A stretch of 64,000 bases of DNA from a virus: the IMG/VR virus record IMGVR_UViG_3300031954_000001, positions 32,001-96,000 of that record, one strand, 5' to 3'. How positions within the stretch are numbered: position 1 is the stretch's first letter; every line of letters starts with the position of its first letter. Below the pieces are notes generated by a model, which was not told the origin of the DNA, did no database searches, and was given only the letters and a program-made list of their open reading frames with translations. The position numbers and the translations under genes were made by a program. Positions 2,243 through 54,988 of this stretch are shown one piece after another.

Positions 2243-2520
2243 GTGATGCTCCCACCGATGGGAAGGTTGCGGCCCATCGTGCCCGGCCCGCCCGTCGCGC
2301 CGTGCCCGGCCAGCCACCCGGCGCAGAACAGCGCCTCGCCGATCGCCATGTCGGCCTCCCGGTCCCGCTCGGGCAGCTCGGACCAGAACACCGTCCAGGA
2401 CGGGTAGTCCGCGACGTCGGGCTGGCACAGCGCCCAGCCGATCCACTTGCGGCGGACGCGCTCGCCCAGCTCCTCGCGGGTCACCCCGGCCAGGGCCATG
2501 ATCGTCTCGTTCACCGTCAT
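2239..2520 (-). CDS. Hypothetical protein, RyR-domain-like
   Basis: W...W....P.W...W.EL.E.DRE.D pattern; ATGA coupling. Confidence 0.55.
   Translation of the reverse strand: MTVNETIMALAGVTREELGERVRRKWIGWALCQPDVADYPSWTVFWSELPERDREADMAIGEALFCAGWLAGHGATGGPGTMGRNLPIGGSIT
2250..2263. promoter_or_regulatory. Dyad site TCCCACCGATGGGA (copy 1 of 6)
   Basis: Palindromic 14-mer overlapping the RBS of 1928..2242. Confidence 0.75.
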
Positions 2521-3821
2521 GGTCTCGTCTCCTCACAGGCTGCGAACTCGCCCAGGCCCAGGCGCTTGCGGGCCAGCGTGCACGCATCCGGGTCGTTCTC
2601 GGCGCCGACAGCCCGGAAGCCTTCCAGCCCGGCGGCCTGCAGCGTGGTCCCGGTACCGGCGAACGGGTCGATGAGCAGTCCGTCCGGGGGCGTGACCAGC
2701 CGGGCCAGCCAGCGCATCACCGCCAGCGGCTTCACCGCGATATGCGGGTTCACCCCGTCCACCGCGGGGCGCTCGGACTTCGGCGCCTTCGCCGCGTACA
2801 GGAACGGGGCATCCTGCGGCCCCCATTCCGTCTGCGGGAAGAACCGGGCATGCTCTCCCGCCAGGGCGACCGGGCAGCCGGGCTCGCACGACCCGTCGCA
2901 CCCGGGGAAATGGGTGAGGATCAGGTCCGGGGGCCAGCGTCCGGCCGAGCCGTCATAGTCCGTACGCTGCGCCCCGGCCTCCCAGGTGCCGTACGTGCCA
3001 TTCGCGCCCATCCGGTCCGAAGCATTCGAATACCTGGTGTGCTGGTTCTTGCCCTGCGATTCGGCCAGGTCCGCCGCGCTGGCGTGCGCGACCAGGCACC
3101 CGGCGATGTTCAGCGCCCCGGTCCCGTGCGCTAGCACGTTCGCGGCGACGGTGCCGTCCAGTGGCTTACGGGCGACGAGCACCGGCTCGATCGCGGGCTT
3201 GAGCGTGGTACCCCAGCCGTTCCAGCGGGCCGCCTCCGGCGTGGCGGGAACAGTGAGACTGCGACCGGCCGGCCGGACGTAGGCATCATCTGCGAACGTC
3301 AGTCCCTGCGTCGAGTGATCGGCTCGCGGCCTGCGGCTGGCGAACCGCCCCTGGCCGACGACCTCGCGCACCGCCCCCGCCGCCTTGTCGATCGCCTTGG
3401 ACACATCCAGCGATTTCGGGAACCCGCTCCCGTAAATCCAGGCGATGCTGTCCCGGATCTCAAACCCGGCCAGCCGGATGGACAGCCCCATCAGGTCCTG
3501 GGTGCGGGGGGCGGCGAACGCGAGCAGCCACGAGCCCGGCTTCAGCACCCGGTACACCTCGTCCCAGGCGCCGGGCGGCGGCACGAAGGCGTCCCACCCC
3601 CGGCCCATGAATCCCTTGCCGTCCGGGACGTGCAGCCGGTCCCCGGCCAGCCACGCGGCCAGCGCCTGCTCGGTCCGCTTGCGCGGATGCTCCGCCAGCC
3701 CGTACGGCGGGTCTGTGCAGCAGGCGTCCGCGCTGGCATCCGGCAGCGACCCGAGCACGGCCAGCATGTCCGTGCCGAACAGGGCGACCCGCCCGTCCTC
3801 GCTTGCCCAGCTACTTGCCAC
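2517..3821 (-). CDS. DNA methyltransferase (N4-C/N6-A, beta class)
   Basis: TDPPY near the N-terminus, DPFAGTGTT near the C-terminus; likely GTG start at 3821 overlapping the polymerase end. Confidence 0.9.
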   Translation of the reverse strand: MASSWASEDGRVALFGTDMLAVLGSLPDASADACCTDPPYGLAEHPRKRTEQALAAWLAGDRLHVPDGKGFMGRGWDAFVPPPGAWDEVYRVLKPGSWLLAFAAPRTQDLMGLSIRLAGFEIRDSIAWIYGSGFPKSLDVSKAIDKAAGAVREVVGQGRFASRRPRADHSTQGLTFADDAYVRPAGRSLTVPATPEAARWNGWGTTLKPAIEPVLVARKPLDGTVAANVLAHGTGALNIAGCLVAHASAADLAESQGKNQHTRYSNASDRMGANGTYGTWEAGAQRTDYDGSAGRWPPDLILTHFPGCDGSCEPGCPVALAGEHARFFPQTEWGPQDAPFLYAAKAPKSERPAVDGVNPHIAVKPLAVMRWLARLVTPPDGLLIDPFAGTGTTLQAAGLEGFRAVGAENDPDACTLARKRLGLGEFAACEETRP

Positions 3822-6800
3822 CGGAAATCTCCCCCCAGGTGCGGCCGGGGCCGGCCTTGTCGCAGATAACCGGGACACCACGGAAGTCACCGGTCATGGC
3901 CGCCTCGATCACGGGCACGGCCTCGTCCGCCTCGGCGTCGGGGAGCTCGAATACGAGCTCGTCGTGCACCTGCATCAGCAGGTACTTGTAGAGTGCCGGG
4001 TCCAGCCGGATCATGCACTCGCCCAGGATGTCCCGAGCCCCGCCCTGGCCCATCAGCGCCGGGGCGACGGTGTAGGCGTACCGCGGGTCGGCTTTCATCC
4101 GGCGGCCGAACCCGTTGTCCAGGATGCCGCCGCCGGCCGCGATGGCGCGGACCTGCTCGCGCCAGTCGCACAGCACCGGGAACTGCTCGGTCATCCCGTT
4201 GTCGAACCCGTAGGCCATGTCCGGGTCGACGCCGTCGCGGATCATCCGCTCCGGCCCCATGCCGTAATTCCAGCCGTGGCCCCGGGCCTTGGCGTCCTGG
4301 CGGCGCGGGTGGTGGCCGTCCTTGTCCCGCGGTGCCTCGCCGAACACCCGGGCGGCGATCTCGTCGTGCGCGTCGCGGCCGGGCTCGAACAGGGCCATGT
4401 AGGCGTGGTCCTGGCAGTGCCCGGCGATGGCCCGCATGTCCACCTGGGCCAGGTCGAATGACCACAGCGAGTACCCGGGCCGGGCGACGAAGATGTCCCG
4501 CTCCACGTGCCGGCCCTCGTGCTTGCCGAACACGGTCAGCCCCGGCTCGGTTACCGACCAGCGGCCGGACGCCTGCCGGAAGCTGATCGACGGGTGCACC
4601 CGCCCGTCCGGGCACATCCATGCCCTGGCGGTCTGGTAGACCGTCCGGGTGGTGGTCACGATATTCATGAACGTGATCATCGTGCGCAGCTCGGCCGGGC
4701 AGTCCTTGCGCGCGGTGATCGCCTCCAGCTCATCGGACCCGATGGCCAGCTTGCCGGTGTCGGTCTTCGGCGGATTGACGACGCCGAACCGGTCCCACTG
4801 CGCGGCCAGCCACGCCTGACCGTCCCCGGTAGTCAGCGGCGAGTCGAAATCGGTGTCTACGAAGTGTTCCTTGCCGCGGCCCCGGCCCTTGATCTCCGAA
4901 CGGCTCAGTGGCAGGTCCCACTGCTCGTGCAGGATCTGCATCGCCGCCCGCTTGCGGTCCTCGCCGGCCTGGTAGCGCTCCTCCAGCAGGACCTCATCGA
5001 CCCCCAGGCCGTTCAGCCGCATGTGCCCGGCGATCCGGGCCAGCTTGTGCTCGCGCGGCAGGTACTCATCGGAGTCATAGCACGCGCTCAGGAACGCGTA
5101 CACGGCCCGGGTGGCGTCCAGGTCGCCGTTCAGGTAGGCGCGGAACTCCTCGTCATCGACGGGAATCTTGTCGGCGTCGCCCCATTTCTTGGCCAGGTCC
5201 TTGAAGCTGTCGGTCTTGCCGGGCACGCCGATCCGCGCGGCCACCGCGTCCAGCCCGTACTTGTCCTCGCTGTGCCCCTTCTCCCGGGACCGCGGCGGCC
5301 AGTACTGCCGGGCGATCAGCTCGGTGTCGCGGGCCTTGGCGCAGAACGCGTCCCAGTCCATGCCCTCGTGCCAGGCCAGCGCCAGCCCGTCGAAGCCGAG
5401 GATGTTGTGGCCGTACACCTGGTCCGCCGCTCCCAGCATCGCCAGCAGCTGGCTCACGGGCACGATCAGGTCGGTCCCGGTCGGGCCGGTGATCCCGCAC
5501 AGCCGGACGAACCCGGTGCCGTCCGCCATGTGGTAGCCAGGCTCGCGGCGGAACATCTGGTCCGCCCAGCCGGTCTCCAGGTCGAATCCGAGCGTAAGCC
5601 CGGAAGCGACGACGGGAGGGATGGAGGGACATGCGGGATAGTTTCCGCCCGCGTCTTCTCGTGTGCGCACCCGCGCGTCCGCGCCCGCACGTACCGGACT
5701 GGGTATAGCTGAAACCTCCATTCCCTCCGTCCCCTCCTCACGTACGCGTACAGGCGCGTGCGGACGTGCGTACGCGCGTGCGCGCGAGGGTGATCCCTCC
5801 GTATCCCTCCCGCCCAGGTCAGGTACCGTTTCCGTTTCCGGTCCGGCGGGAGGGATCGGGAGGGATGAAATCTGCGACCCGTCGTCGTCGCGGGTCTGGA
5901 CGAACCACTTCTGGACCTTGCGGTGCCCGATACCCATCTTGATGAGCCGGAACTGCCCGAACCAGCGGGACGCGACCCGGCTGTAGGCCGCGCCCATGCT
6001 CCGGGCGAAACCGCGCTCGGCCGGGTCGTCCAGGCCGGGCGGGCTGTCCCAGGTCCCGCCCGATTCGGCGGCTCGCTGCGCGACATCCAGCACGGTGAAC
6101 TCCCCGCTCCGGAAATGACCGGACAGCCAGGCCAGGTGCTCGGACCAATAGCCGCCGGAGCTGTCGGACTCGCGCCGCCGCTCGGTCAGCCCGGCCAGGA
6201 ACCCGGGTACGCCGGCGTGGTGCAGGATCCCGGACATCATCCGGTCCCACCCCTCGAAACTGCCGAGCGAAGCGCCCCGCTTATGCTCCGGGCACCCGGC
6301 CGCCCACCAGGACCGGAGCACGATCAGCGCGGCGGTGACCAGCTCGGGCCGGTTGTCCAGCGTCCAGGTGCGCAGCTCGGAGTGAGTGAACGACTCAGCG
6401 AGCCGGTCCTCGGGTTCCGGCACGTCCGGGCGCAGGTCGATGAAGTACGACCGCCGGGACATGTCCGCCGGGACGTCGATGTTGTTGCCCAGCGCGATCC
6501 AGGTGACCCGGTTCGGGAAGCTGGCCAGCTTGGATACGCCGAGGATCCGGTCGGTGTAGGTGAGCGAGGTGATCGCCCGGGTCAGCGCGGACCCCGACAG
6601 CTTGACCACTTCATCGAAGACCAGGAACGGCGCGCCGGCCCGGAACGCCGAGGTGATCTGCTTGCGGTTCTCCTCATCGCCTGCCTTGTCCGAGGCCCAG
6701 GGCAGTGGCGGGATCGCCTCCCCGGTGACCATCAGCGAGATGCAGTCGGCCAGCAGGTTCTTGCCGACACCGGGCTGCAGGCCCGACACCACGGCGAGCG

Positions 6801-8115
6801 GAACCAGCGGGACCAGGCCGCGGATGAACGAGGTGAGCACCAGCGCCAGCGCGTTGGCCCGGCTGGACTGCTCGGGAAACGGCATGTCTCCCAGCCAGTT
6901 ACCGAGCAGGAACTGCACGGCCCAGGCGACCTGCTCGGGCGTCGGCGCATCCGGGATGTCCAGCCGGTCCATGCCGGAGTTGCCGATGGCCAGGAAGGTG
7001 CGGCTGGACTCGTCGTAGCCGTTCTTGAAGCACACCGACCCGTCCGAGCGGATGAACGGGGTGCGGCTGATCCGGTCCAGCGGCACGAAGTCATCGCCCG
7101 AGGACAGCACCGCGCCCATCGTCTGCACTTCCGGCCAGGCCGGCTCGAACGTGCCCGGGCTGTTCGCGCCCGGCGGCTTGTACTTGCAGGTGAACGCGGC
7201 CTCAGCGATCCAGCGGGCGAGTGAGTCCCGGTCCAGCGGCTCGGTGGATACGCTGAACGTTCTCGGGTCAGGGGCCGTGTAACGCAGCCTGGTCATCGCC
7301 CCGCCGAAATTGAACAGGTCGCGGCCATCCCACAGCTCCCGCATCCGGGCCAGGATCGAGTGGACGACGACGACCCGGTCCTCGTTGACCACGATCACCG
7401 GCCGCCCGTTCGTCTCCGGCTCCTGGTCGCCCAGCTTCCGGTGCGACGGCCGGCGCTCGGCCGGCTTCGGCTGCGCCCTGGCGAGCAGCTTAGCCATCTT
7501 GTCGGTCCGCCGGCCCTCATCGAACCGGGCCAGGTAATCGTCAATGCCGTCCGTGCCCCACGCGAGCGACGGGACGAATCCGGGAACCGCGTCCTCGGAT
7601 TCCAGCTCGGCGGCCATGCCTTCGGCGGACTCGTAGACGTTCAGGTTGTCGCCGGCGTCGGCGTCGATCAAGATGATCACCGGGTGCCCGGCGAACCGGT
7701 GGAACGCCATCGCGGACAGGTCACGCCAGCCGTCCACGCCGGCGATCCCGTAGACCGCGTACTCGGACGGCGCGTAGCTGGCCACGGCGAGGGACTGCTT
7801 AGTGCCCTCGGCGATGATCACCGGCCCGGCCTTGCTGTCAGCCGGGAGCGGCCGGAGCGCCCACATGTGCAGCGGGTGCCCGGCTTCCCACAGGTACTTA
7901 GGCGTGCCCTGCGGCAGGCCGCCCTCGGGTTCGGGCCACTGGCGGGTCTGCCTGGTCAGCATGTTGTTGTCGCGCCACGGGAAAACGACCCGGTCGCCGT
8001 CCGAGCTGACATCCGCTGCCGCCAGGACCTTGTCGGTGATGGCGTGGGCGCGCAGGTATGCCAGGTGAGTCTCCGAGAGACGGGATTGCACCAGCTGCGT
8101 GTCGTCGTTGCTCAT
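3811..8115 (-). CDS. Fused Toprim primase / P-loop (SF3-like) helicase / family-A DNA polymerase with 3'-5' exonuclease
   Basis: IIAEGTK, DADAG..N, GIDDYL (Toprim); GLQPGVGKN, LVFDEV, GNN, DMSRR (NTPase); FDLETG, HNILGFD, YLNGD (ExoI-III); DLAQVDMR, RQDAKARGHGWNYG, QVHDEL (Pol motifs A/B/C). Confidence 0.92.
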   Translation of the reverse strand: MSNDDTQLVQSRLSETHLAYLRAHAITDKVLAAADVSSDGDRVVFPWRDNNMLTRQTRQWPEPEGGLPQGTPKYLWEAGHPLHMWALRPLPADSKAGPVIIAEGTKQSLAVASYAPSEYAVYGIAGVDGWRDLSAMAFHRFAGHPVIILIDADAGDNLNVYESAEGMAAELESEDAVPGFVPSLAWGTDGIDDYLARFDEGRRTDKMAKLLARAQPKPAERRPSHRKLGDQEPETNGRPVIVVNEDRVVVVHSILARMRELWDGRDLFNFGGAMTRLRYTAPDPRTFSVSTEPLDRDSLARWIAEAAFTCKYKPPGANSPGTFEPAWPEVQTMGAVLSSGDDFVPLDRISRTPFIRSDGSVCFKNGYDESSRTFLAIGNSGMDRLDIPDAPTPEQVAWAVQFLLGNWLGDMPFPEQSSRANALALVLTSFIRGLVPLVPLAVVSGLQPGVGKNLLADCISLMVTGEAIPPLPWASDKAGDEENRKQITSAFRAGAPFLVFDEVVKLSGSALTRAITSLTYTDRILGVSKLASFPNRVTWIALGNNIDVPADMSRRSYFIDLRPDVPEPEDRLAESFTHSELRTWTLDNRPELVTAALIVLRSWWAAGCPEHKRGASLGSFEGWDRMMSGILHHAGVPGFLAGLTERRRESDSSGGYWSEHLAWLSGHFRSGEFTVLDVAQRAAESGGTWDSPPGLDDPAERGFARSMGAAYSRVASRWFGQFRLIKMGIGHRKVQKWFVQTRDDDGSQISSLPIPPAGPETETVPDLGGRDTEGSPSRARAYARPHAPVRVREEGTEGMEVSAIPSPVRAGADARVRTREDAGGNYPACPSIPPVVASGLTLGFDLETGWADQMFRREPGYHMADGTGFVRLCGITGPTGTDLIVPVSQLLAMLGAADQVYGHNILGFDGLALAWHEGMDWDAFCAKARDTELIARQYWPPRSREKGHSEDKYGLDAVAARIGVPGKTDSFKDLAKKWGDADKIPVDDEEFRAYLNGDLDATRAVYAFLSACYDSDEYLPREHKLARIAGHMRLNGLGVDEVLLEERYQAGEDRKRAAMQILHEQWDLPLSRSEIKGRGRGKEHFVDTDFDSPLTTGDGQAWLAAQWDRFGVVNPPKTDTGKLAIGSDELEAITARKDCPAELRTMITFMNIVTTTRTVYQTARAWMCPDGRVHPSISFRQASGRWSVTEPGLTVFGKHEGRHVERDIFVARPGYSLWSFDLAQVDMRAIAGHCQDHAYMALFEPGRDAHDEIAARVFGEAPRDKDGHHPRRQDAKARGHGWNYGMGPERMIRDGVDPDMAYGFDNGMTEQFPVLCDWREQVRAIAAGGGILDNGFGRRMKADPRYAYTVAPALMGQGGARDILGECMIRLDPALYKYLLMQVHDELVFELPDAEADEAVPVIEAAMTGDFRGVPVICDKAGPGRTWGEISGGK
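5614..5867. repeat. Four paired GGAGGGA-type repeats around purine/pyrimidine-alternating tracts; candidate replication origin
   Basis: Pairs at 5614-5630 (fwd), 5722-5737 (rev), 5793-5811 (rev), 5848-5867 (fwd). Confidence 0.6.
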
Positions 8116-8226
8116 CAGCGGTCCCTAGCGGATATAATCGAGTCGGACGTTGACGTGGCTGTCGGCGTGGTCATGCAGGTGGCGATCGGACCGGCTTCGG
8201 GCAGTGGAGCCGGTCCCCGCTGCGTT

Positions 8227-8823
8227 TCAGGCGGCAGGCGCATCGCTCACCACCACCACCTCGTCGTAGTTCTGCGCGAAGTTTCGTACACAACAGCGCA
8301 CCGCGTCAGCTCTTGATTGAGCTGTACCAGCCGCCACCAGGGCGTCGATCACGCTCAGCTCGCGGTAGCCGAGCCAGACCATGACGCGGCCGGTGTCGCC
8401 CTCGTTTGCGTTCCCGTGGCTCAGGCGGCAGGCTTTACCGCCTTGCTTACTTGAGTTGCAAGAAACGCACAGGACCTGGTATCCGTCCGGGAACCCCTGG
8501 GCGATGAGCCAGCGGTAGAACCCCGTACCGGCGCGCTTGTAACCAAACAACTCGATCCGGTGAATGCGGCCGTCGCCGTTTTCGTGATCAATCGACAGGT
8601 CTTCCGTCGCACCGCAGCAGGCGCAAGCGCGCCCGTAGTGATCGAGTACCCGGTCCCGGACTCGTGCCGTTTCAAGGATCCCACGGCGTCTCATGCATTC
8701 CCGGCATGCGGGCTTCAGCCCGGTTCGCCTGCTCCTGTCTTTGTTGAACTCAGTGACCGGGAGCGGGTTCGGTCCGGTATGCCCTGGATCGGAACATAGC
8801 TTCATCTGCTCAGCCGGTGGCAT
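8227..8823 (-). CDS. HNH endonuclease with N-terminal Zn motif and C-terminal ribbon-helix-helix-like domain
   Basis: CACCG...LSIDH...LCVSCNSSK; C-terminus RVMVWL...IDALVAAG..SRADAVR. Confidence 0.8.
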   Translation of the reverse strand: MPPAEQMKLCSDPGHTGPNPLPVTEFNKDRSRRTGLKPACRECMRRRGILETARVRDRVLDHYGRACACCGATEDLSIDHENGDGRIHRIELFGYKRAGTGFYRWLIAQGFPDGYQVLCVSCNSSKQGGKACRLSHGNANEGDTGRVMVWLGYRELSVIDALVAAGTAQSRADAVRCCVRNFAQNYDEVVVVSDAPAA

Positions 8824-11722: not shown

Positions 11723-12244
11723 TTACCAGTTCTCCGGTCCGTGTTTCCACGTTTTCCCTAGCTTGATAGCACTTATAGCCTGATCACCAACACCGAATAG
11801 TTTTCCTATAGCTCGCTGCGACATCTTATTTTCCGTAAACATGCGCCTTATCTCGCATACTTCCACCCAGGTCAGTTGTGCATTCCCGTTTCGCGCACCT
11901 CTATTTGTTACGTGGTCCCTGACTTTATCCGCACAATTCTGTTCCGGGGTCCCCCAGTAAAGGTTCTCTGGCCACCGGTTATCCAGGCTGCCTCCCGGCC
12001 CGTGGCAGGCTTGCTGACCAGCAGGCCGCGGACCAGCAAACGCGAGTAGCACCAAGGTATGGACAGCTATACTTCCCCTGTTCCCCGGGCCTGCGTTCAG
12101 GCACACTTGATAGTAACCATCATGGATAACAGGCCGGAGTATGCGTCCCGGAGTCCCGCGCCTGCGTGAAGACCTTATAAGACCCTTATTGCTCGCCTCG
12201 TAAAATCCTTCATATCCTGGGACAGGAAGCCACATTTCGTTCAT
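11723..12244 (-). CDS. NUMOD4-HNH homing endonuclease with C-terminal HTH
   Basis: W.PVPGYEG.YEASN.G.IRS; H.LVLLAF.G...H...DNR..NL.W; visibly lower GC than neighbours. Confidence 0.9.
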   Translation of the reverse strand: MNEMWLPVPGYEGFYEASNKGLIRSSRRRGTPGRILRPVIHDGYYQVCLNAGPGNRGSIAVHTLVLLAFAGPRPAGQQACHGPGGSLDNRWPENLYWGTPEQNCADKVRDHVTNRGARNGNAQLTWVEVCEIRRMFTENKMSQRAIGKLFGVGDQAISAIKLGKTWKHGPENW

Positions 12245-12249
12245 GACAG

Positions 12250-14055
12250 CTATTTTATCCCTCCTAGCAACTCTCGTACCACACGTACATCTCGTACCAA
12301 TTGGCCTAGCTGTCCAGCTTTTTCACGAAGAACATCTCTGCGACGCTGGTCCACTGTTCCCCTGGTCACGACGTCCACGATTTCGAGGTGGTCGTGGATT
12401 TCCGCGCCGATCCGGTCGATCCGTCCTTCCGGCTGGATGGCCAGGTCCAGCTGCCAGGATCGCTGCAGCATGACCGCGCAGTTCCCGGCGGTCAGCGTGA
12501 TGCCGACGCCGCCCGCGCCAGCGGTGCACATGATGACGTCCAGCCGGCCTGCCTGGAAGTCCGTGACGGCCTGCTGGCGGGTCGCGCGGGTGATACCGTC
12601 CGCGCCGGTCCCCACGATATAACCGGTCCGGTAGCCAGCCTGCTCGCAGTGCTCCCCGGTGAGCATGGCCAGCTGCCGGGACTCGGTGAACACCGCAGTC
12701 GGCTGCCCGGGCCGCTCGGTCAGGATGCCCAGCAGCGTCTCGGCCTTCCAGCACGGCCGCTTGAGCCGCACGTGGTAATGCTTGACCAGCAGCCCGGTGT
12801 CCGGGTCGATTTCCTCGGTGACCGTGACGTCGGCCGCGCTGGACGCGAGCTGGGACAGCCGGGTGAGTTGCGCAAGCGTGGACATGACCGGGAGCTCGCC
12901 GCCGTCCGGGAGCTCGGCGAGCATTTCCCGTTCCATGCCGTCGTACGCGCGCCGCCACTCATCCGGCATCTCCGGGCGGCGCACCGAGTAGATCTTCGGC
13001 GGCAGCTGATCCAGCACGTCGGCCTTGGCCCGGCGCAGGATCTGGCCGTCCAGGCAGGCGAAGAACTCGGCCTCCATCTCCGGGCGCAGGCCCAGGATGA
13101 CGTCCTCGCCCTGGCCGGACGGATCTTTCCGGATAGCGATGTAACGACCTTTGGCCCGGTCCCAAGACGGCCAGCTCGCGTGGTCCAGGCAGGCCAGCGC
13201 CGGGTAGACGTTCTTCATGGAGTGCGTGACCAGGGTGCCGGACGCGGCGATGAAGGCATCCGCATGGCGCGCGATCCGCTGCACCGCCTGGGACTGCTGT
13301 GACCGGTCATTGCCGCACATGTGTGCCTCGTCAGCGATCACGGTGGTCGGCTTCAGCCCCGGCAGCAGGTCGCGGGCGTCCTTCGCGTCTCGTCTTGCGG
13401 TCGCGTAGGTAGTGATCAGGATCCAGTTCCGGTCCCGCCAGCCCCTGACGCGGGCGCGGCTGGCGCCCTGGTGCATGACCGGTTCCGGCCAGCGGGGCAT
13501 CCACTCGCGGATATGGCTATCCCAGACATCACCGACATCCCAGCCTGGGACCACGATGATCATGGGGAAGATCTCGTGCCCGGCCTGGCGCCGGGCTTCC
13601 AGGCCCAGCAGCGAGATGACCGTTTTACCGGTCCCTACTTCGTGCAGCAGCAGCACCTTGCCGGCCGCGGCCAGCGCGGCGGCGTCTTGCGCCTGGAAGT
13701 CGTACGGCTTGAGCCAGGGCGGGCAGACGTCGGGGGGCAGCGGCGGCGGCGGCGTCATCCGGCGGATCGCCTCGGCCATGATCCACTCAGCCAGCTTCGG
13801 CTGCGGATTCCACGTCGCGCGTGACCCGTTGCCGCTGAACATGCGGCCGATCTGCGTGACGGTAGCCCAGGTGGCCGGGACGAGCAGCACGTCCATGTTC
13901 CGGCTGCCGTCGTCGTTGCGGGGGTGCTCGCCGAGCGCAGTCAGGTACTGCAGCCGGGTTGCGGCCAGCTTCAGGCCGAAGTCGTCAGCCGCCGCTGCGA
14001 CCAGGGCGATCTGATCTCCGGCTACGTTAAGTTCGCCAAAAAGTGCTGCGGTCAT
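12250..14055 (-). CDS. SNF2-family (SF2) DNA helicase
   Basis: HEVGTGKT, DEAH, SGT, QPEGRIDRIG; ATGA-coupled start at 14055. Confidence 0.9.
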   Translation of the reverse strand: MTAALFGELNVAGDQIALVAAAADDFGLKLAATRLQYLTALGEHPRNDDGSRNMDVLLVPATWATVTQIGRMFSGNGSRATWNPQPKLAEWIMAEAIRRMTPPPPLPPDVCPPWLKPYDFQAQDAAALAAAGKVLLLHEVGTGKTVISLLGLEARRQAGHEIFPMIIVVPGWDVGDVWDSHIREWMPRWPEPVMHQGASRARVRGWRDRNWILITTYATARRDAKDARDLLPGLKPTTVIADEAHMCGNDRSQQSQAVQRIARHADAFIAASGTLVTHSMKNVYPALACLDHASWPSWDRAKGRYIAIRKDPSGQGEDVILGLRPEMEAEFFACLDGQILRRAKADVLDQLPPKIYSVRRPEMPDEWRRAYDGMEREMLAELPDGGELPVMSTLAQLTRLSQLASSAADVTVTEEIDPDTGLLVKHYHVRLKRPCWKAETLLGILTERPGQPTAVFTESRQLAMLTGEHCEQAGYRTGYIVGTGADGITRATRQQAVTDFQAGRLDVIMCTAGAGGVGITLTAGNCAVMLQRSWQLDLAIQPEGRIDRIGAEIHDHLEIVDVVTRGTVDQRRRDVLREKAGQLGQLVRDVRVVRELLGGIK

Positions 14056-14282
14056 CTTGTTCCCGCGTCCCCGGGCAGCCCGCACATGGGCACAAGCATC
14101 AGCTCCGGAAGCGGGATGCCGATGGTCTCGTCCAGGACGCAACAGCACTCCGGGCAGCGGCAGTGGGCCTGCCACGAGTGGCCGCCCTCGGCGCTGGAGC
14201 GGATCCCGCAGTGATGACCACGCTCGCCGTGGCTGGCCACGGCAGCGCACTCGGCGGGGAGGCCGGTGGTGACGTCGCTCAT
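14052..14282 (-). CDS. Small Cys/His-rich protein
   Basis: Multiple C/H pairs; GGAGG RBS. Confidence 0.55.
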   Translation of the reverse strand: MSDVTTGLPAECAAVASHGERGHHCGIRSSAEGGHSWQAHCRCPECCCVLDETIGIPLPELMLVPMCGLPGDAGTR

Positions 14283-31164: not shown

Positions 31165-33350
31165 GCAAGGCGAACAGGCGTAAGCGAGCCAGGAAACGCA
31201 ATCCGGCGCAGCGCTCCGGCCGCCGGGTAGCCGATCCGCGCCCGGCCCGCCGCGACGGCGGGTACGGGCTGACCGTCCACGGTACCGCCGAACCGTACGA
31301 CACGGGGAACCTGCACCCGTCGCTGCGCGGGCTGGGACCGGACGACGAGATCGACGTGATCATCACGCCGGACGATGACGCTGCCCCGCCGCCGGGCGGG
31401 GGCGAGCTGCTGGGCACGCTGCGCAGGCCGATGACGGGCGACGACGGCCGGATCCTGTCCGAGGGCGCCCGGGTCTGGCGGGATCTCCGCACGCCCGCGG
31501 AGCGCCGCGCAGCCGGTGCCACGAAGTTCGGCGAGTTCACCGACGACCCCGGCGAGCTCATCAACCCGGCAGGCGTTCAGCTGCAGGCCCCGGAGGACGT
31601 GATCCTGGACATCGGACGGCCCGGACCAGGGTCGCGCACCGCGATCGCCGGCGGCCCGCACGACGAGCCGCGCGTGGTCGCGGACTACCGGCAGCAGCTG
31701 GAGCAGGACGCGGTCCCGGCCGCGTTCCGGGCCAGGCGCAAGGCGGCGGGCGGCTCGGCGGCCGACCTGGTGCAGGCACTGGAGGAGGAGTCCGAGGGCC
31801 TGGCTGCGCGGCTGGCCCGGGGCCTGTCCGCTGAGGAGCTGGCCGAGCTGGCACCGCAGATCGCCCGGGCCGCGTCGATCGGCGGCGTGGCACCCGGCAA
31901 GTACTCGTTCACCACCGGACAGCCTGAGCCCGGCGGCGAGATCGTCGTCTCCGGCCCGCCGCCCGGTCCCGGACTGGCAACCGAGTCCGTCCCGGCGACC
32001 CTCGTAACCGGCGGCGACGCCCCGGCCCTGGAGCATGCCGGCCTGCAGCCCGGTGACATCATCGCGCCCGCCCAGCCGATCGGCTACATGTCCGCCGGCA
32101 TCCCCGTGCCCGAGGGCGCCGGCCGGTCCCCGGATGACCAGGTGTGGCGCCCGCGCGTGACTACGCAGCCGCGCGAGGAGATGAGCCTGGGTCCGGTCAC
32201 CGCCGCGGTACTGGACCGGGTCCGGCACATCGAGGCCGGCGACCCGGCGATCCTGGACCTGCGCCCGTCCGAGGTGCTGGCCATGCACACCGACCTGGCC
32301 GACCTGATGGCCAACCCGCACGAGAAGGTCTTGCGGTACTACCACTGGTTCATGGAGCGGACCATCGGCGAGGCGCACACCGCCGGCGGGGCCGAGCGCG
32401 CCCGGGAGTACTGGGAAGGCATGTTCTGGCCGGCGACCACGGCCCGGGAGTGGACCACGATCCTGGCCCGGCTGCTGCGCTCGGCGCGCACCTACAAGGT
32501 CACCGCCGAGATGGTCGACAAGGTCACCGAGCAGTATGCCGAGGACCTGGCGTCCGGCTGGTACGCGGTCGATGAGGACGACCTGCCCTGGCCGGCCGGG
32601 TTCGCGTGGCTGGACGCGCCGCTCACCTTCACCGACAAGTTCGGCAAGGAAGGCTGGAACCGGGCGGTGTCCTGGGGCCAGGAGTACCTGGCGCTCGGCA
32701 GCATGAACCCGCGTGACTCCCGCCGGGTGCCCGGCGCCCGGATCGTGTCGTGGTCCTGGCACGACGACCGCGACTCCTACTGGACCCCGGATACCGGCAC
32801 GAGCATCCAGGAAATGGGCGGGCTGGCGATGGCGCACGCGATCAGCTTCCCGTACCGCGCCCGGCTGAACGTCAAGCGGGACGCGCAGGGCCGGGCCACC
32901 CAGGACGACACGATCCGCTGGGTCCGCACGCTGTGGAAGGTGCTCAGCTCGGAGATCTCCGCGACCCGGTCAGACGTCCACATCGAGCGGCACGTCCGCA
33001 AGCGCGCGCTCCGCTCGCTGCGCCACGGCGAGGTCCACGTGGTCACGCTACGCCGCAAGCACTACGTCAGCGACGGCGAAGGCGGCCACCAGGCCAGGAT
33101 CTACACCTGCCGGTGGCCGGTCAACGGCTTCTGGCGGCATTCCCGCCGCGACGCGGACTGGGAGGACGCTCACCACACCTACGACGAGCACGGCCGCCGC
33201 ACCCGGCACCACGCCACCCCGGACGAGACCAGGGAATACTGCGCGATCTGCGGCGCCCCGGTGTCGTGGATCGGAACTTTCGTTAAGGGGCCTCCGGGCG
33301 CACCCTGGAAAGACGACGCCAACCGCACTGTGTTCGTGTTGCGGCGCTAG
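31161..33350 (+). CDS. Large hypothetical protein with C-terminal W.V.G.WR...FVKGP motif
   Basis: ATGA-coupled start at 31161. Confidence 0.75.
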   Translation: MSKANRRKRARKRNPAQRSGRRVADPRPARRDGGYGLTVHGTAEPYDTGNLHPSLRGLGPDDEIDVIITPDDDAAPPPGGGELLGTLRRPMTGDDGRILSEGARVWRDLRTPAERRAAGATKFGEFTDDPGELINPAGVQLQAPEDVILDIGRPGPGSRTAIAGGPHDEPRVVADYRQQLEQDAVPAAFRARRKAAGGSAADLVQALEEESEGLAARLARGLSAEELAELAPQIARAASIGGVAPGKYSFTTGQPEPGGEIVVSGPPPGPGLATESVPATLVTGGDAPALEHAGLQPGDIIAPAQPIGYMSAGIPVPEGAGRSPDDQVWRPRVTTQPREEMSLGPVTAAVLDRVRHIEAGDPAILDLRPSEVLAMHTDLADLMANPHEKVLRYYHWFMERTIGEAHTAGGAERAREYWEGMFWPATTAREWTTILARLLRSARTYKVTAEMVDKVTEQYAEDLASGWYAVDEDDLPWPAGFAWLDAPLTFTDKFGKEGWNRAVSWGQEYLALGSMNPRDSRRVPGARIVSWSWHDDRDSYWTPDTGTSIQEMGGLAMAHAISFPYRARLNVKRDAQGRATQDDTIRWVRTLWKVLSSEISATRSDVHIERHVRKRALRSLRHGEVHVVTLRRKHYVSDGEGGHQARIYTCRWPVNGFWRHSRRDADWEDAHHTYDEHGRRTRHHATPDETREYCAICGAPVSWIGTFVKGPPGAPWKDDANRTVFVLRR

Positions 33351-46625: not shown

Positions 46626-49600
46626 TCACCTCACCGAGCCATAATAGCCCCTGTTAGCAGCGCGCCCGGCGACGTTATTGAGAGCGGCAGAATAAGCCGC
46701 CGGGGCCGCGCCCATTATCGCGATCAATTTATCCATTCTGTTAATAAGCTGCATTTCCCCGGGGGTCATCCCGCCCGGGCCGATGACGCCGCCCGGCGGG
46801 ACGGGGGAGATAACTTCATTGCGTCCTGTCCCGTTCCAGGCTGCCGTAAGTCCGGGCGGGAGCACGCCGCCGCGGTCGAAACCGACAATGCCTCCCCTGG
46901 CCATCCAGCCGTAGATGCCGGCCAGCGTGATCCAGGCCGGGGTCCCCCGCTTGGGCAGCGCGGGGGCGGCCAGGTCAGTGCCGAACGGGGTGACCGGGTC
47001 ACCGATCCGGCTGCCGACCAGCTGGTACAGGTTGCCCAGCTCGGCGTACAGGCCCTGCATCAGCGCGGGGTGGCCGCCGGGCACGTGCGACAGGTCGGCG
47101 TCCCGGGTGGTGGCGGCCTCGGATTTCAGCGTGGCGGTGAAGTGGTCCAGGACCGTCTTGACCGGGGGGTAGGGCTTGCGCGTCATCAGCGCCGTGTAGG
47201 CGGCCAGCTCGTTGTTCTGTCCCTTGGCCAGGGTCGCCAGCTCGCTGCGGATGACGGCCCGGTGGGCGTAGTCCCAGGCGCCCGGCTTGGCCTTGGCCAG
47301 GCTGGCCCTGAACCCGTCCGCGACGTGCTTGTAGTACAGCGCCTCGGTCTTCTGCTCGGCGGCGACCTGCGCATAGAAGTTGCCGAGCGCGATGGTCCCG
47401 GAGGGGGTCTTCCAGGCCGGGAACGGGCCGCCGCCCGCGCTGCCCGGCAGGGACGGCTCCTGCGCGGCGGCGGTCGCCATCGCCTCCAGCTTGGCCCGGA
47501 GCAGCCCCAGCGCGGTGCCGGGCACCTTGCCCAGTCCAACGTCCTGGGTGGTCTTGATCTCCTCTTTCATCATCGAGATGAAATGGCTGATCTCCGCGGC
47601 GGTAACGTGCGCGCCCACCACGGGCTTGTACGCGGCGGCCTCGCTGCCCTGCCGGCCGGCCAGGGTGCCCAGCTCGTTGATGATCGAGGTGTGGTAGCGG
47701 GCCACGGCGCTGCCAGCGGCGGCGTGCGCGAGGGCGGACAGCGCCGCGGCGCGGAACGCGTTGTAGTCCAGGATCTCCCGGTACTGGTCGCCGCCCAGCT
47801 TCTGCTGGTACCCGGCCAGCCCGCCGGCGGCGTACCCCATGACCTCGTGCGGGGTGTGCGGGAGGATCGTCTCGTCGTGCCCGGTCCCGTTCATGACCAG
47901 GGTCAGGCCCGGCTTGAGCACGCCGCCCTGGTCGTACCAGTGGCTGGCCAGCTCATGGGCTTCCGCGCCGGCCGGCGAGCCGTAGACGCTCTTGATGTAG
48001 TTCAGGCCCCAGTCGATCTGGGCCGACGCGGAGCTGGTCGGCGGGTTGGCGAGCGGCCCCATCTTGGACGCGGGAAGGGCCTGCGGGATGCCATACGCGC
48101 CGGAAGACGGGTTGCGCGCCAGCCGGTTCCAGCCGGACTCCTGGGTCCAGAGTGCCTGAAGGGGACCGAACTGATTCGCCTGCCACCCGAACGCGCCGAG
48201 GCGGGATCTGGCATATGCCTGCGCGGCAGCGGCATCTGCCGAGGTCGGCCCCATCCCGGCCGGGACGCCGGATGTCGCGGCAGCCTGCTGCTGGGCGCTC
48301 TGGTCCTTCTGCTTCATGTAGCCGCTGATGCCCTTGTCCAGCAGGCCGGCGAGAGACTGGATGAAGGCCCCGGGCATCGTGCCCTTCGGCAGCCGGGCGA
48401 CAGCCGGCGCGATATCTTCCTTCCAGATGGCATCGAAGATCGCCTGCGCGCCCTTGCTGGCCAGGGCCAGCAGGGCCTTGGAGCCGCCCTGGACGTACTG
48501 GGCCAGTTTCGCGGTCGTGCCGGACAGCGCGGTGCCCGATGACGTGGTCAGTCCTTCCAGGTCCTGCCACATCTGGGTCACGCCGCCCCATCCGGACGGC
48601 CCGGCAGCCGGCAGTATCCCCTTGCCCTGCACCCCGCCCAGCCGGATGCCGACGACGAACCCGCCGGTCCCGATGGGCGAGGTGGTGACGCCGTACTGGG
48701 TACCGAGCGCGGAGATCAGCGTGCTCGGGCTGGCTGCCATGCCGACGTGCCCGATGCCCCCGTAGCTGGACGGCCCCGGCGCCGCCCCGGAGGAGAAGAC
48801 GATGTCGCCGGTCTGGATCTGGCTGAGCTGCTTATAGGCGTAGTCACCTGACCAGGCGCCGAACCAGTCGGCCTCGGATGCGGCGATAGCGGCGGACTGG
48901 GGGATCGGCACGCCGGATGAGGAGGCAGCCGTCCACAGCAGGGACGAGCAGTCCCAGGGCGGCTTGCCCCACCGGTTCGCCTCGGAGTAAGCCTGCCCCT
49001 GCTTGCTCATCATGAAGTTGAGCATGGACTGCTCAACCGCGCCGCCCGCGGCAAAGTGGGGCATCCTCCGGTTGAGGTCGATGGGGGCATCGCCTCTGCC
49101 GGGGTGGTGCACCCACCTGCCGCCGGAAACGTCGCGGGGGTCCACGTACGGGGCTCTGCCGGGAATCACGGGGCTCTGGTTAACTGCACCGCCGGCCGCG
49201 TAGCCGACGTACCCGCCGCCGGCGAACCCGGGCAGCTTGCCCCGCAGGTGATCGACCGCGCCGGCGCTGACCATGGATGTGGGCACGACCACCTCGCCCT
49301 TGCTGAGCAGCGCGTGCACGTCGTCGGCGGCCGGGCCGGATCCCAGGTGCACCATGCCGCCGCCGGCGAACTGCGGGATCGGCTGGATGGACAGGCTGCC
49401 CGGCAGGTTCTTCAGGATGTTGGCGTTGATCCAGCCGACAACGCTGTTGTTGAACGTGCCGGCCGCGGAGTTCCAGCCGTTCTTGAAGGCGGTGACGATG
49501 TCACCGGACCAGGCGCTGATCGCCGAGCTGACCGGCTTGTCCACGTGCCCGGAGAAGTACTGCGCGACGTCATCGAAAGTCGAGTGGGCCTTGCCGGTGA

Positions 49601-52600
49601 GGCTGGCGAACCCGGCCGGGATCGTGGTGCCGAAGAAGGCCTGGACCGGGCTGACGAAGGTGCCCTGGAAGGTGCCCGCGATGACCTGCCAGGACCGCTT
49701 GAACCCGTTTTCCAGGCCGGCGAGCCAGCCCGGGACGGTACTGGCGAAGAACGCGGCCAGCGCGGACTGCAGGCCGGAGACGAAGTCGGCGGCGGCCTTG
49801 TTCCACAGCTTGCGGAACCCGCCCTCGGCCGCGATGAGCCAGGCCGGCAGCTTCGCCGTGAACATGGCGGTCAGCACGGTGGCGAATGTCGTCTGCAGCG
49901 AGTTCGCCAGCTTGAGGAACGTGACATTCCCGAGGGAGGCGAACTGCTGCATCCAGGCGGGGATCCGCTGGGCGAACAGCACCTCCAGCGCCCCGCTCAG
50001 GACGTTGATCGCCCCGGCCAGTGACTGAGCCCCGCCCCCGCCGGCCGGGCCGCCCGCCGCCATCCTGGCCGGCCCGCCGGCCGCGTAGCCGATGATCCCG
50101 CCGGAGGCCCGGAACCCGGCCACGGCGCCGACCGCGCCGGGGTGCACGTCGCCCTTGTTGAGCGCGTTCATGATGCCGAGCCCGTACCGGCTGACCGAGG
50201 CGGCCCGGATGACGTACTCGCCGCGGGATGCCAGGATGTGCACGTCGTCGGCGGTCGGCCCGGTCCCGGCGGTGATCAGCCCGCCGTGCTGCTTGTAGGC
50301 CGCCGCGGGGGCCACGCCGAGCCGCCCGGTGACCGCCTGGGCGACCTGGCTCAGCCGGGTCTGGACGTTGCTGATGGCGTTGTTGGCGGACGTGGTGTCC
50401 ACGTTCAGCTTGATGGTTTTGCCGGCCGGCAGCTGGTCAATGGCGCCTTTCAGGCCGCCCTTGCCGCCGCCGCCCAGCGCCGTGTAGAGCTCGTCGGCCT
50501 GTTTCTTGGTCAGCGACATGCCGCTCTTGCCGCCAGACCCGGCCCACGCCTCGAAGTTCGCCTTGGACTTCAGCGCGTCGGACTGCGGGCCGCCCAGGCT
50601 GCCCAGTTCCTTGCCCAGGTTGCCGTGCAGCGAGTTCCACAGCTTGTCGGCCCGGTCCTTGGTCAGGCCCAGGCCGTGGGTCGGGTCACCGGCCAGCTTC
50701 TCGAACTCCGCCTTGGCACCGGGGGCCTTGGACTTGGCCAGGTCAGACAGGGTAGCGCCGAGGTTTCCATCCAGTTTCTTCCACAGCTCGTCGGCCTTCT
50801 TGGTGGTCAGCCCGAGTCCCTGGTTGCCGCTCTGGCCGGCGAACGCCTCGAAGTCCTTCTTGGCCTGCGCGGCGGTGTCGCCGGACTTCTTGACCGCCGG
50901 GGTCAGCTTGGGCGAGATCTCGTCCCACAGCTGGGTGGCCTCGTCCTTGGTCAGGTGCAGGGCGCCCAGCGCGAACGACATGAACTGGGTCTTGGCGTCG
51001 TTGACGTTACCGGTGGCCAGCAGCAGCGACTGGGCGAGCTCCAGCGCCGAGGTCTTCTGCTGATCGCTGTTGAACTTGCTGTGCATGACCGCGTTGGCGA
51101 AGTCGTTCATGGCCTTCTGGCCGCCGCTGGCCATGACGACGGCGCTGGCCATGGCCTGGGTCAGGTTCTGGCCGAGGGCGATCGACAGGTTCTTGACGTC
51201 ATCGGCCAGGTTGCCGGCCTTAGTCGTCATCGTGGTGACGATGCCCTGCAGGTCGGCCATCCCGGGCTTAGCGTTCTTGACCGACCCGGAGTTCGTGTCG
51301 ATCCAGTGGGACAGTTCCTTAAACGAGTCGGCGCCCTTGTACCCGCCGCGCTGGGCCAGGGCGTACAGCACATCGGTCATCTGCTGGCTGCCCTGAGCGG
51401 CCGGCAGCATCTGGCTCAGCATGTCCTTGGTGGCCTGCTGCAGCAGGTCCATGCCGTGCTGCCCGAGCCCGGCCGCGGCCGACAGCGACGTCAGCGAGTC
51501 CATCTGGGTGTTGGCCGCCGAGGCGGTCTGCAGCAAGGTCTGCTGAGCGGCGATCGACGCGTCGTTCAGCCCGGTCATCGTCGCCTTGCCCTGCTGAGCA
51601 GAGCCGGCCGCGTTCCGGATGGACTCGCTGACCTTGCCGTTGGCGATGGTCAGGGCCACGGTTCCCTGGGTCGCCCCGCCGAACGCCTCGTTCATCCCGT
51701 TGACTTGCTTGGCAAAGCCCAGGAAGTCCGATGACCCGCCGGAGACCAGCTTGAAGAACGCGTCCCAGCCCTGGTTCAGCTCGGAGACCTTGGAGTCCTG
51801 CATCTCGGTGGCGAACGTGACCGCGTTGATCGACGCCTGCAGCTGCGTCCCGCCCGCGCCCATCTCCGCGTAGCCCTTGACCAGGTTGTCGACCTTCTGG
51901 CTCATTACCGCGAGACTGTCGGTGGACCGGACCCCGGCCAGGTTCATCAGCGTGAGAGCCTGGGTGTAGTTCATCGTGCCGAGCTTCAGCTTGTCCTGGT
52001 TGAACATCAGGGCGCCGGTCTCGGCGAACAGGTTCCGGTCCTGGCCTAGCCAGTTGTTGATCTGCTGGTTGAGCAGCGAGATGTTCCGCGCCATCTCGGC
52101 CGGCGCGCCCGGGTGCCCGAAGAAATCGTGGAAGGCGTGCCCGAAGTCCATGACGGTGTTCTTCAGGTTCGGCCAGGAGGCCAGCGACTGGGGGATGTCA
52201 CCGAGGGCCTTGCCGAACGCGCCGGCGGTGGACATCACTTCCGCTGAAATGTTCTGCCAGGTGCCGCCGAAGGTGTGCCAGTTCTGGTTGAACGTCGCGA
52301 CCCCGCCGCCGGAGTTGATCTCGTTGATCTTGGCGTTCGCCTGGCCGATGGCGTCGCTGATGTCCGTCATCGCCTGCGACGCCTGATCCGAGTTGATCTT
52401 CTGGTTCAGGGTGTCGATCAGCTTGGCGACATCCGGGGTTGCCTTGCGGGCCTCGATGGCCATCGCGATGATCGCGGCGGTGGCGAGCAGGAACCAGGTC
52501 AGCGGGTTGGCCAGCAGCGCCAGCAGCCCGCGCCCGAAGGCGGCCAGCCCGGCGCCGGCGGTCCGCAGCGCGCCACCCAGGGCGACCAGGCCCTTCTCCG

Positions 52601-54596: not shown

Positions 54597-54988
54597 CAGC
54601 CGAACTCGGCTTCCAGGGACTCAAGCCCGGTGGTCATGAACGGGTACCGGTCGTACATCTGCTCGGTGTGCGGCTTGTCGTACTCCAGGAAGATGCCGGT
54701 ATACATCGCGTTGCCGCCGCCGTACAGGCCGCCGCGGCTGCCGATCACCGGGCCGTGGGTCCGGATCGTGCCCCTGGTCGTGCCCGGCGGCCGGACGGCG
54801 GTGCTGGACGGGAACCAGTAGCCGCTGCGCTTAGTGCCCGGCAGGACGTGCACGACCGATTTGGCGACGGCGACGGCCTTCTCGTCCAGGTACATGATGA
54901 ACACCCCGACCGGCCCGGCCGGGTCGTTCAGCACCTCATAAAGGGCGGCCTCGTCCCACTCGATCTGGCCCGGGATGATTATCGCCAT
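54596..54988 (-). CDS. Tail completion / HK97 gp10-like protein
   Basis: Y..FLEY...YPFM motif; position. Confidence 0.6.
   Translation of the reverse strand: MAIIIPGQIEWDEAALYEVLNDPAGPVGVFIMYLDEKAVAVAKSVVHVLPGTKRSGYWFPSSTAVRPPGTTRGTIRTHGPVIGSRGGLYGGGNAMYTGIFLEYDKPHTEQMYDRYPFMTTGLESLEAEFG

Follow-up and report, generated by a model that had tools for sequence, protein, structure and literature searches.

The window analysed here comprises 64 kb (positions 32,001 to 96,000) of the 108.8-kb IMG/VR phage record IMGVR_UViG_3300031954_000001, which has a GC content of about 69%, is estimated to be about 52% complete and comes from a high-GC actinophage of soil. The subject of this report is a replicase gene on its minus strand at positions 3811..8115, together with a repeat element located in the DNA of the interdomain linker of this gene. 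A preliminary description, made from the letters of the window alone, had proposed one uninterrupted frame of 1434 codons for a Toprim primase, an SF3 (superfamily 3)-like helicase and a PolA polymerase with proofreading exonuclease. Translation of 3811..8115 indeed yielded an ATG-initiated open reading frame (ORF) of 1434 codons without any internal stop, preceded by a Shine-Dalgarno-like AGGGA 6 nt 5' of the start ATG at 8115, and the results from Pfam, PHROG and AlphaFold2/Foldseek agreed in placing a Toprim primase-like domain, an SF3-type NTPase and a proofreading PolA in this ORF. The gene is organised as follows, with window positions, strand and the corresponding amino acids (aa):

7426..8115, minus strand, aa 1-230: DnaG-type Toprim primase-like domain of the DUF3854 type, without zinc module
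6934..7425, minus strand, aa 231-394: beta-rich bridge domain leading from the primase-like domain to the ATPase core
6316..6933, minus strand, aa 395-600: SF3 (D5-like) helicase ATPase core
5896..6315, minus strand, aa 601-740: helical region with a terminal winged-helix domain (aa ~650-740), putatively origin-binding
5596..5895, minus strand, aa 741-840: disordered linker with an origin-like repeat element in its DNA
4996..5595, minus strand, aa 841-1040: 3'-5' proofreading exonuclease domain
3811..4995, minus strand, aa 1041-1434 plus stop: family A DNA polymerase domain

The base composition at third codon positions (GC3) was 0.82-1.0 over both halves of the ORF, which matches the expectation for real coding sequence at 69% GC, and fell to 0.57-0.70 solely in the linker (codons ~741-840). 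In JGI, ENA and Logan assemblies, a word-indexed search detected more than 117 full-length homologues, which measure 1300-1540 aa and cover 97-100% of the query at 37-59% identity. We also scanned viral and metagenome contigs for loci of this kind (designated by L and a number); a scan seeded with the single protein returned no relatives, while alignment-seeded scans did find them. Among the 58 independently fetched loci bearing both halves, the two halves were in one frame at 56 to 57. One apparent split (L092) proved to be an artefact of the alignment edge. The other exception comes from a close relative (L115; Ga0210402_10146958, positions 340-370), whose linker opens with a TGA immediately ahead of the first GGGGGAAC unit, in a place where L107 has GGC. 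The gene could be a pseudogene or be naturally split at this point, or the TGA could be a sequencing error. The assembled linker of the window itself contains neither a stop nor a frameshift, and the close homologues are fused rather than split, so that the search for the same fusion that the preliminary description had called for came out in its favour. We are therefore nearly certain that the gene codes for a real single-gene fused replicase.

The fusion is embedded in a much larger family of primase-helicases. When the N-terminal 740 aa served as the query of an exhaustive phmmer search, 17,864 relatives were obtained, and among the best 150 representatives clustered at 50%, 34 were at least 1300 aa long, all with the C-terminal HDE motif of the polymerase, and 86 were stand-alone primase-helicases of 700-1100 aa. 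In phiSAJS1, TP1604 and other more distant Streptomyces phages, the two genes are adjacent yet separate. In another distant relative (L053), we observed that the primase-helicase and PolA ORFs share one frame with a single stop codon between them (8152-8154). In addition, there is a second fused lineage of about 1450-1590 aa, in which DUF3854, D5_N and DUF5906 domains of the P4/D5 type are fused to a polymerase from the same PolA clade (47-56% identity). The domain content of this lineage was checked with Pfam for L015, L019, L038 and L002, while L013 matched DUF5906 only; L032, L033, L035, L037, L046 and L052 were assigned by ORF length and PolA similarity only. One of the checked members (L002:3562-7902) is the linear Streptomyces plasmid pS1D4-14.2.

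The fusion itself is not new. Pas55 of the Actinoplanes phage phiAsp2 (NC_005885; our locus L009) was named as a fusion of SF3 helicase, DnaG primase and PolA by Kazlauskas, Krupovic and Venclovas in 2016 (PMC4889955), the first description of this type, and fusions of this kind are common in metagenomes. The 1415-aa Pas55 shows the same order of DnaG-type Toprim, SF3 helicase and exonuclease plus PolA in one polypeptide, its tblastn alignment covers 99% of our query with 37.6% identity (E 0), and its neighbourhood is similar in containing an SF2 (superfamily 2) DNA helicase gene a few genes upstream. The replicase of the window is thus a further fusion of the Pas55 type.

The C-terminal half carries all residues expected for a proofreading polymerase. 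PHROG 17 and 403 match this half, with a large polymerase family spanning aa 840-1430, Pfam DNA_pol_A matches aa 1114-1428 (E 5e-34, 118 bits vs. a cutoff of 34), and Taq and Klenow polymerases match with E values of about 1e-42. In the homologues, the exonuclease residues D845/E847 (Exo I), D909 (Exo II) and Y994/D998 (Exo III) are invariant, as are the polymerase residues D1221 and D1226 of motif A, R1272/K1276/Y1284 of motif B and H1384-D1385 of motif C, and E1386 of motif C is nearly invariant. The active site shows two peculiarities shared by the family. At the position of the steric-gate residue Glu710 of Klenow polymerase, motif A (window 4438-4455) contains an aspartate, Asp1226, which is invariant in 49 aligned homologues, and at the position of Phe762 of Klenow polymerase, motif B (window 4264-4290) contains a histidine, His1280, which is nearly invariant in the same set.

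At the N-terminus, PHROG 16213 ('DNA primase') spans aa 13-225 with an E value of 3e-25. The match to Pfam DUF3854, a member of the Toprim clan, is weak (aa 96-197, E 0.035, under the gathering score), and precomputed DUF3854 matches exist for many homologues of the replicase. The acidic Toprim residues E103 (EG motif), D151xD153 and D192D193 are invariant across 117 full-length homologues. Modelling of aa 1-740 with AlphaFold2 on the basis of 49 homologues gave a mean predicted local distance difference test score (pLDDT) of 89.6, and Foldseek aligned the N-terminal part of this model at a probability of 1.00 with two DnaG RNA-polymerase cores, namely 2au3 (E 3.6e-5 over 263 columns) and 1dd9 (E 7e-5 over 265 columns, root-mean-square deviation [rmsd] 5.7). 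The absence of a zinc-binding domain noted earlier was borne out: aa 1-300 contain no cysteine, which rules out a zinc ribbon or module, and no Zn-ribbon family matched. The following bridge domain (aa 231-394) is modelled with pLDDT values mostly above 90 and is covered by PHROG 29234, PHROG 10537 and, from aa 294, by the alignment with RepA of the Streptomyces plasmid pWTY27 (see below), with no Pfam family match.

It is conceivable that the Toprim domain is not a primase at all, acting instead as a nicking or other metal-dependent nuclease or in a structural role, while the host or another phage protein provides the primers. The missing zinc-binding domain, the DUF3854 score under the gathering threshold and the occurrence of DUF3854, a domain without demonstrated activity, in cyanobacterial CyRepA, the Rep protein of plasmids for which rolling-circle replication is assumed, would all fit such a role. 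We nevertheless regard it as improbable, because the fold matches whole DnaG RNA-polymerase cores over about 265 columns, well beyond the Toprim subdomain, the acidic metal ligands are invariant, and primases are usually located N-terminally of an SF3 helicase, as this domain is. Kazlauskas et al. (2016; PMC4889955) found the primase in the N-terminal position in 94% of primase-helicase fusions and called the corresponding domain of Pas55 a DnaG primase.

The helicase part belongs to SF3. PHROG families of the primase/helicase type span aa 215-740, and Foldseek matched this part with a probability of 1.00 to the helicases of African swine fever virus PrimPol (8wvz, E 9e-7), NrS-1 (6k9e), monkeypox virus E5 (8wh6) and vaccinia D5 (8hwg) and to the SaPI5 primase-helicase (7ola), while no DnaB, gp4 or Twinkle helicase was among the fold matches listed for aa 1-740. 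The Pfam families D5_N, DUF5906 and Primase_Cte did not match the replicase at E values up to 1. The fold matches support the contrast drawn in the preliminary description to the apicoplast PREX protein, a primase-helicase-PolA polyprotein whose polymerase is a detectable relative of ours (5dku, E 4e-21). In phage T7, a primase-helicase ring (gp4) is coupled to a PolA-type polymerase (gp5) as separate proteins. Both PREX and T7 use a DnaB/Twinkle-type SF4 (superfamily 4) helicase and a zinc-binding primase, whereas the helicase of the replicase is of the SF3 type. Residues invariant in the 117 homologues include G445/G449/G451/K452 of Walker A, D501-E502 of Walker B, G543-N544 of motif C (sensor Asn) and R554-R555 (arginine finger). 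The unusual GKN reading of Walker A was confirmed within the sequence G-V-G-K-N at aa 449-453: position 453 (window 6757-6759) is N in 106 of the 117 homologues and G in 10, instead of the S or T of other proteins, and GK-N or GK-G is a trait of the whole helicase family, stand-alone relatives included.

The region from the end of the ATPase core onwards (aa 575-740) was modelled with a pLDDT of 83.6, and the last ~90 aa of the helicase half align with winged-helix domains such as ScpA C-WH, MarR, PadR and Z-alpha at structural Z scores of 5-6.3 (rmsd ~2.7-3 Å, 62-76 aligned residues). The best match reached Z 6.3 (rmsd 2.7 Å, 69 aligned), many others lie at Z 5-6, in the range of a common fold, and the Z-alpha domains (Z ~5.3-5.9) do not stand out among them. 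The same region is homologous to the C-terminus of pWTY27 RepA.

Directly behind the winged helix, the coding sequence enters the linker, whose DNA is organised in four arrays of the unit TCCCTCC around an alternating tract:

5849..5865, minus strand: array 1, TCCCTCC twice at a distance of 10 bp, the sense strand being pyrimidine-rich
5794..5810, plus strand: array 2, two TCCCTCC units on the strand opposite to array 1
5764..5786, no strand: 23-nt perfect purine/pyrimidine-alternating (CG/CA) tract between the arrays
5714..5738, plus strand: array 3, one exact TCCCTCC and two degenerate units; its sense strand is purine-rich and holds the ATG at 5721
5611..5629, minus strand: array 4, two TCCCTCC units 8 bp apart

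Seven of the nine copies of TCCCTCC in the window are located in the linker, where about 0.06 are expected, compared to 13.7 expected in the whole 64 kb. Likewise, five of the eight copies of the pattern ATCCCTCC in the 108.8-kb contig fall into the linker, and a control pattern had 0 matches. No second iteron cluster comparable to crr of P4 was present in the 108.8 kb of this ~52% complete record, where ATCCCTCC occurs outside the linker only as single copies. Arrays 1 and 2 form a pair with arms of 22-24 nt (91% complementary) and a 30-nt spacer, arrays 3 and 4 one with arms of 17 nt (82% complementary) and an 87-nt spacer, and a perfect outer inverted repeat of 10 nt (5607-5616 / 5878-5887) encloses both pairs. 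Purine/pyrimidine-alternating (CG/CA) tracts are prone to adopt the Z-DNA conformation. The longest alternating run in the rest of the replicase ORF is 11 nt, and the density of runs of at least 10 nt is 159 per kb in the linker vs. 5 per kb elsewhere. A consensus scan for promoters and terminators over 3600-8500 gave none in the linker. We dropped the idea of an intron at this site, because an Rfam scan of 5300-6200 at E values up to 10 showed no group I or II intron, riboswitch or other family, only chance matches of the miRNA-like hairpin type.

The repeat architecture is conserved, although the linker protein is not. In the 117 homologues, the linker varies between 51 and 231 aa and is not alignable as protein, its peptides merely shadowing DNA repeats that change together (IHPIHP/GMDGMD, LHPLHP/GMKGMK, IPPIPP/GRDGRD). 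About 20 relatives contain tandem units of 9-11 bp in inverted arrays, each with a unit of its own (ATCCATC, GTTCCCC, CTTCATC, GTCCCCC, TACCCCC, CCCTCCG and TACCTCC, among others), and up to 10 copies of the unit were counted in their linkers compared to 3-5 in coding controls of the same length. Alternating tracts of 14-48 nt are present in the linkers of 11 of the 12 closest relatives (L085, L098, L108 and L115 among the carriers), while such runs reach at most 9-12 nt elsewhere in the ORF. The same arrays, with an AT-rich centre, also occur in two split relatives (L029, L049), where they lie in a C-terminal extension of the stand-alone primase-helicase; no comparable arrays lie in the spacer that separates the primase gene from the pol gene in phiSAJS1. 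The linkers of the phiAsp2-like clade (L006-L012, L018, L042, L101, L122, L143) are built differently: instead of inverted 9-bp arrays and an alternating tract, that of Pas55 contains a forward CTGTGGAY pair exactly 12 bp apart and a TGACA-N6-TGTCA palindrome. The pair is shared by the linkers of this clade, the palindrome is found in 13 loci, and both motifs are rare in the rest of each locus. The CTGTGGAY pair resembles the actinobacterial DnaA box; such TGTGGAY pairs are absent from the clade of the window and present in the phiAsp2-like clade only.

The closest functional parallel is offered by the Streptomyces theta-type plasmid pWTY27. Its RepA protein is homologous to aa 294-726 of the replicase (BLASTP E 1e-45, 29% identity; tblastn E 4e-35), which includes the bridge domain, the ATPase core and the C-terminal winged helix. 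According to Wang et al. (2012; PMC3583192), replication of pWTY27 needs repA, repB for a primase of the archaeo-eukaryotic primase (AEP) type and a 300-bp non-coding sequence directly 3' of repA, this sequence, the iteron, includes GTGGGAAC and TTCCCAC five times each, and the long inverted repeat IR2 within it is where RepA leaves a footprint. When we inspected the sequence, the GTGGGAAC / GTTCCCAC arrays displayed a layout like that of the linker, namely a purine-rich pair, a central spacer and a pyrimidine-rich pair, built from a 7-8-bp unit in both orientations and located, as in the linker, directly after the part coding for the winged helix. The two systems differ in that pWTY27 RepA is a stand-alone protein of 538 aa with a separate AEP-type RepB primase and without a polymerase, that its Walker A is a canonical GKS and its Walker B reads D-N, and that its iteron is non-coding, whereas the linker of the replicase is part of the coding sequence. 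P4 gp-alpha offers a second comparison, since it joins a Toprim primase, an SF3 helicase and a C-terminal winged-helix origin-binding domain which recognises short iterons in both orientations (PMC4889955). It differs in lacking a polymerase, and the replicase in turn is without a zinc motif; the Pfam families of P4 (D5_N, DUF5906/Primase_Cte) match the second fused lineage instead of the replicase.

Combining these data, the best overall explanation is a fused Pas55-type replicase whose linker DNA serves as an origin bound by its own winged helix, to which we assign a rough probability of 0.62. In this proposal, the SF3 part would form a ring that doubles as the origin-recognising initiator, as do P4 gp-alpha and pWTY27 RepA, and each subunit of the ring would bear its own primase and polymerase. 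The match to hexameric SF3 structures makes it plausible that several polymerases would be assembled on one helicase ring, as the preliminary description had already suggested. The 300 bp of coding linker would constitute a cis-acting origin with four inverted arrays of a phage-specific unit of ~9-10 bp around the alternating tract, and the adjoining winged helix would bind the arrays. The linker was probably once intergenic DNA 3' of a stand-alone primase-helicase and was absorbed into the frame when polA was fused. In the simplest reading, an origin of the pWTY27 kind was taken up in this way, which would account for the lost codon bias, for the conservation at the DNA level beside disorder at the protein level, and for a leftover GGAGG-ATG as one arm of the repeats. 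Regarding the linker DNA by itself, the odds lean slightly towards an origin, or else some different binding site of the winged helix, judged by analogy. A more far-reaching version, in which the whole replicon is contained in one gene, the unit co-evolves with the wing and the Z-DNA-prone tract replaces an AT-rich unwinding element, has in our opinion an even chance of being correct.

Several observations weigh against an origin in the linker. The proposed function is assigned by analogy, its basis being pWTY27 rather than a phage or a fused homologue, and the different motifs in the linkers of the phiAsp2-like clade show that the element is not uniform across the family. The winged-helix match at Z 5-6.3 supports the fold and nothing more specific, and the structure search with this domain singled out neither P4 gp-alpha nor any origin-binding domain. 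There is no AT-rich unwinding element in the linker (GC 0.68 vs. 0.69 for the ORF; 0.50 in the 30-mer of lowest GC) nor any other obvious one, whereas pWTY27, L029 and L049 do possess an unwinding element. The inverted repeats would fold equally well as RNA, which makes a role at the RNA level possible. On the protein side, Walker A of the putative initiator helicase contains N (G in some relatives) where S or T normally binds Mg. The Toprim domain lacks the zinc module which DnaG and T7 gp4 require for priming. DUF3854 is of unknown function according to the paper on cyanobacterial CyRepA, and primase activity of the zinc-less domain is a prediction. Finally, a possible sign of initiator-iteron pairing is suggestive at best: at all 18 loci, the class of the unit (with or without CTCC) corresponds to the wing motif G-H-[RK]-[KS], and four changes fall on a tree from which the wing-motif columns had been left out, but the classes were set after seeing the data and only two (well-supported branches) or four (all branches) independent pairs are available, from which no significance can be reached.

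A coding origin would not be without precedent. Repeated initiator sites inside the coding sequence of an interdomain linker occur in the lambda ori in gene O and in the SPP1 oriL in gene 38. The proteins of these two genes are neither helicases nor polymerases, and their origins contain AT-rich unwinding regions that are absent in the linker of the replicase.

As an alternative to a DNA site, the linker repeats may act as RNA, either as hairpins that pause the ribosomes between the two halves or by masking and unmasking the purine-rich stretch and the ATG at 5721, so that a free polymerase of ~70 kDa would be produced besides the fusion. Such a free polymerase had been raised in the preliminary description, and the ATG (5721-5719, Met799) as well as a purine-rich, GGAGG-like sequence ahead of it are indeed present in frame. 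The predicted fold of the linker RNA (301 nt) is more stable than expected (z = -3.3), arrays 3 and 4 pair across this ATG, and split relatives such as phiSAJS1 begin their pol gene near its position. However, the internal start was not borne out, as the purine-rich stretch turned out to be an arm of the repeated inverted unit, the site is not conserved, and the spacing between the Shine-Dalgarno-like sequence and the ATG would be 2 nt or 12 nt, both of which are poor. Relatives whose units lack an ATG cannot contain an equivalent internal start, leaving the idea a weak one. An RNA role in general is also hard to reconcile with a short unit that is reused in tandem in every hairpin arm, a feature needed by binding sites but not by stems, and with a layout which is kept in relatives whose units lack an ATG or a Shine-Dalgarno-like core (GTTCCCC, CTTCATC, GTCCCCC) and in the stand-alone primase-helicases of L029 and L049, where no polymerase follows downstream in frame. 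Furthermore, the pWTY27 element of the same layout is non-coding and bound as DNA, and no Rfam family matched the linker. We therefore consider a function as RNA unlikely compared to the proposed origin.

Even less likely is a functionless relic, i.e., former intergenic or slippage-prone low-complexity DNA that is tolerated as a disordered tether. While the lost codon bias, the highly variable length (51-231 aa) and sequence of the linker and the TGA at its start in L115 would be in line with such a relic, slippage yields direct rather than inverted repeats, and the layout of four arrays plus alternating tract is retained at 42-62% identity with the unit changing in all copies together. Moreover, an unselected stretch of 100 codons would stay open with a probability of ~0.1, as estimated from base composition, compared to the 56 to 57 of 58 loci in which it is open. 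An assembly or sequencing artefact joining adjacent genes, as might be suspected from the metagenomic origin of the contig, the non-coding-like GC3 of the linker and the split genes of the more distant phages phiSAJS1 and TP1604, is extremely improbable, given that more than 117 independent homologues and the isolate phage phiAsp2 share the continuous frame with linkers differing in length and sequence.

The replicase gene is part of a phage replication and DNA-metabolism module on one strand, which contains the following neighbours:

12250-14250, same strand as the replicase: SF2 DNA helicase
11723-12244, same strand as the replicase: HNH endonuclease
8227-8823, same strand as the replicase: HNH endonuclease
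2517-3890, same strand as the replicase: DNA methyltransferase
974-1900, same strand as the replicase: endolysin

With the GTG start listed for it, the methyltransferase ORF (2517-3890) shares 80 nt (3811-3890) with the end of the replicase gene; the true start of the methyltransferase is probably located further downstream. Elsewhere in the window, we noticed an ORF of 2665 codons with a strong coding signal (46626-54620, minus strand, GC3 0.93).

The fusion as such is a catalogued curiosity, to which our analysis mainly adds how common it is in soil phage metagenomes. In the literature searched, we found no account of an origin in the linker of Pas55-type replicases, and the origin-like linker appears to be the only part of the system that is undescribed there. 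If the linker is an origin, coding and cis-acting constraints would share the same 300 bp, and a single module uniting initiator, primase, helicase, polymerase and origin would be transferred and recombined as a whole. This would account for the occurrence of one PolA clade in combination with two different primase-helicase lineages. Annotators should be aware that a stretch lacking codon bias within a long phage replicase ORF need not be an error. The differing units and wing motifs of the relatives would provide a natural series for reading the specificity between initiator and iteron. Should the linker prove to be the origin, these phages would supply high-GC Gram-positive hosts, for instance Streptomyces and Actinoplanes, with a replication module that is minimal and self-contained and has a possible use as a vector tool.

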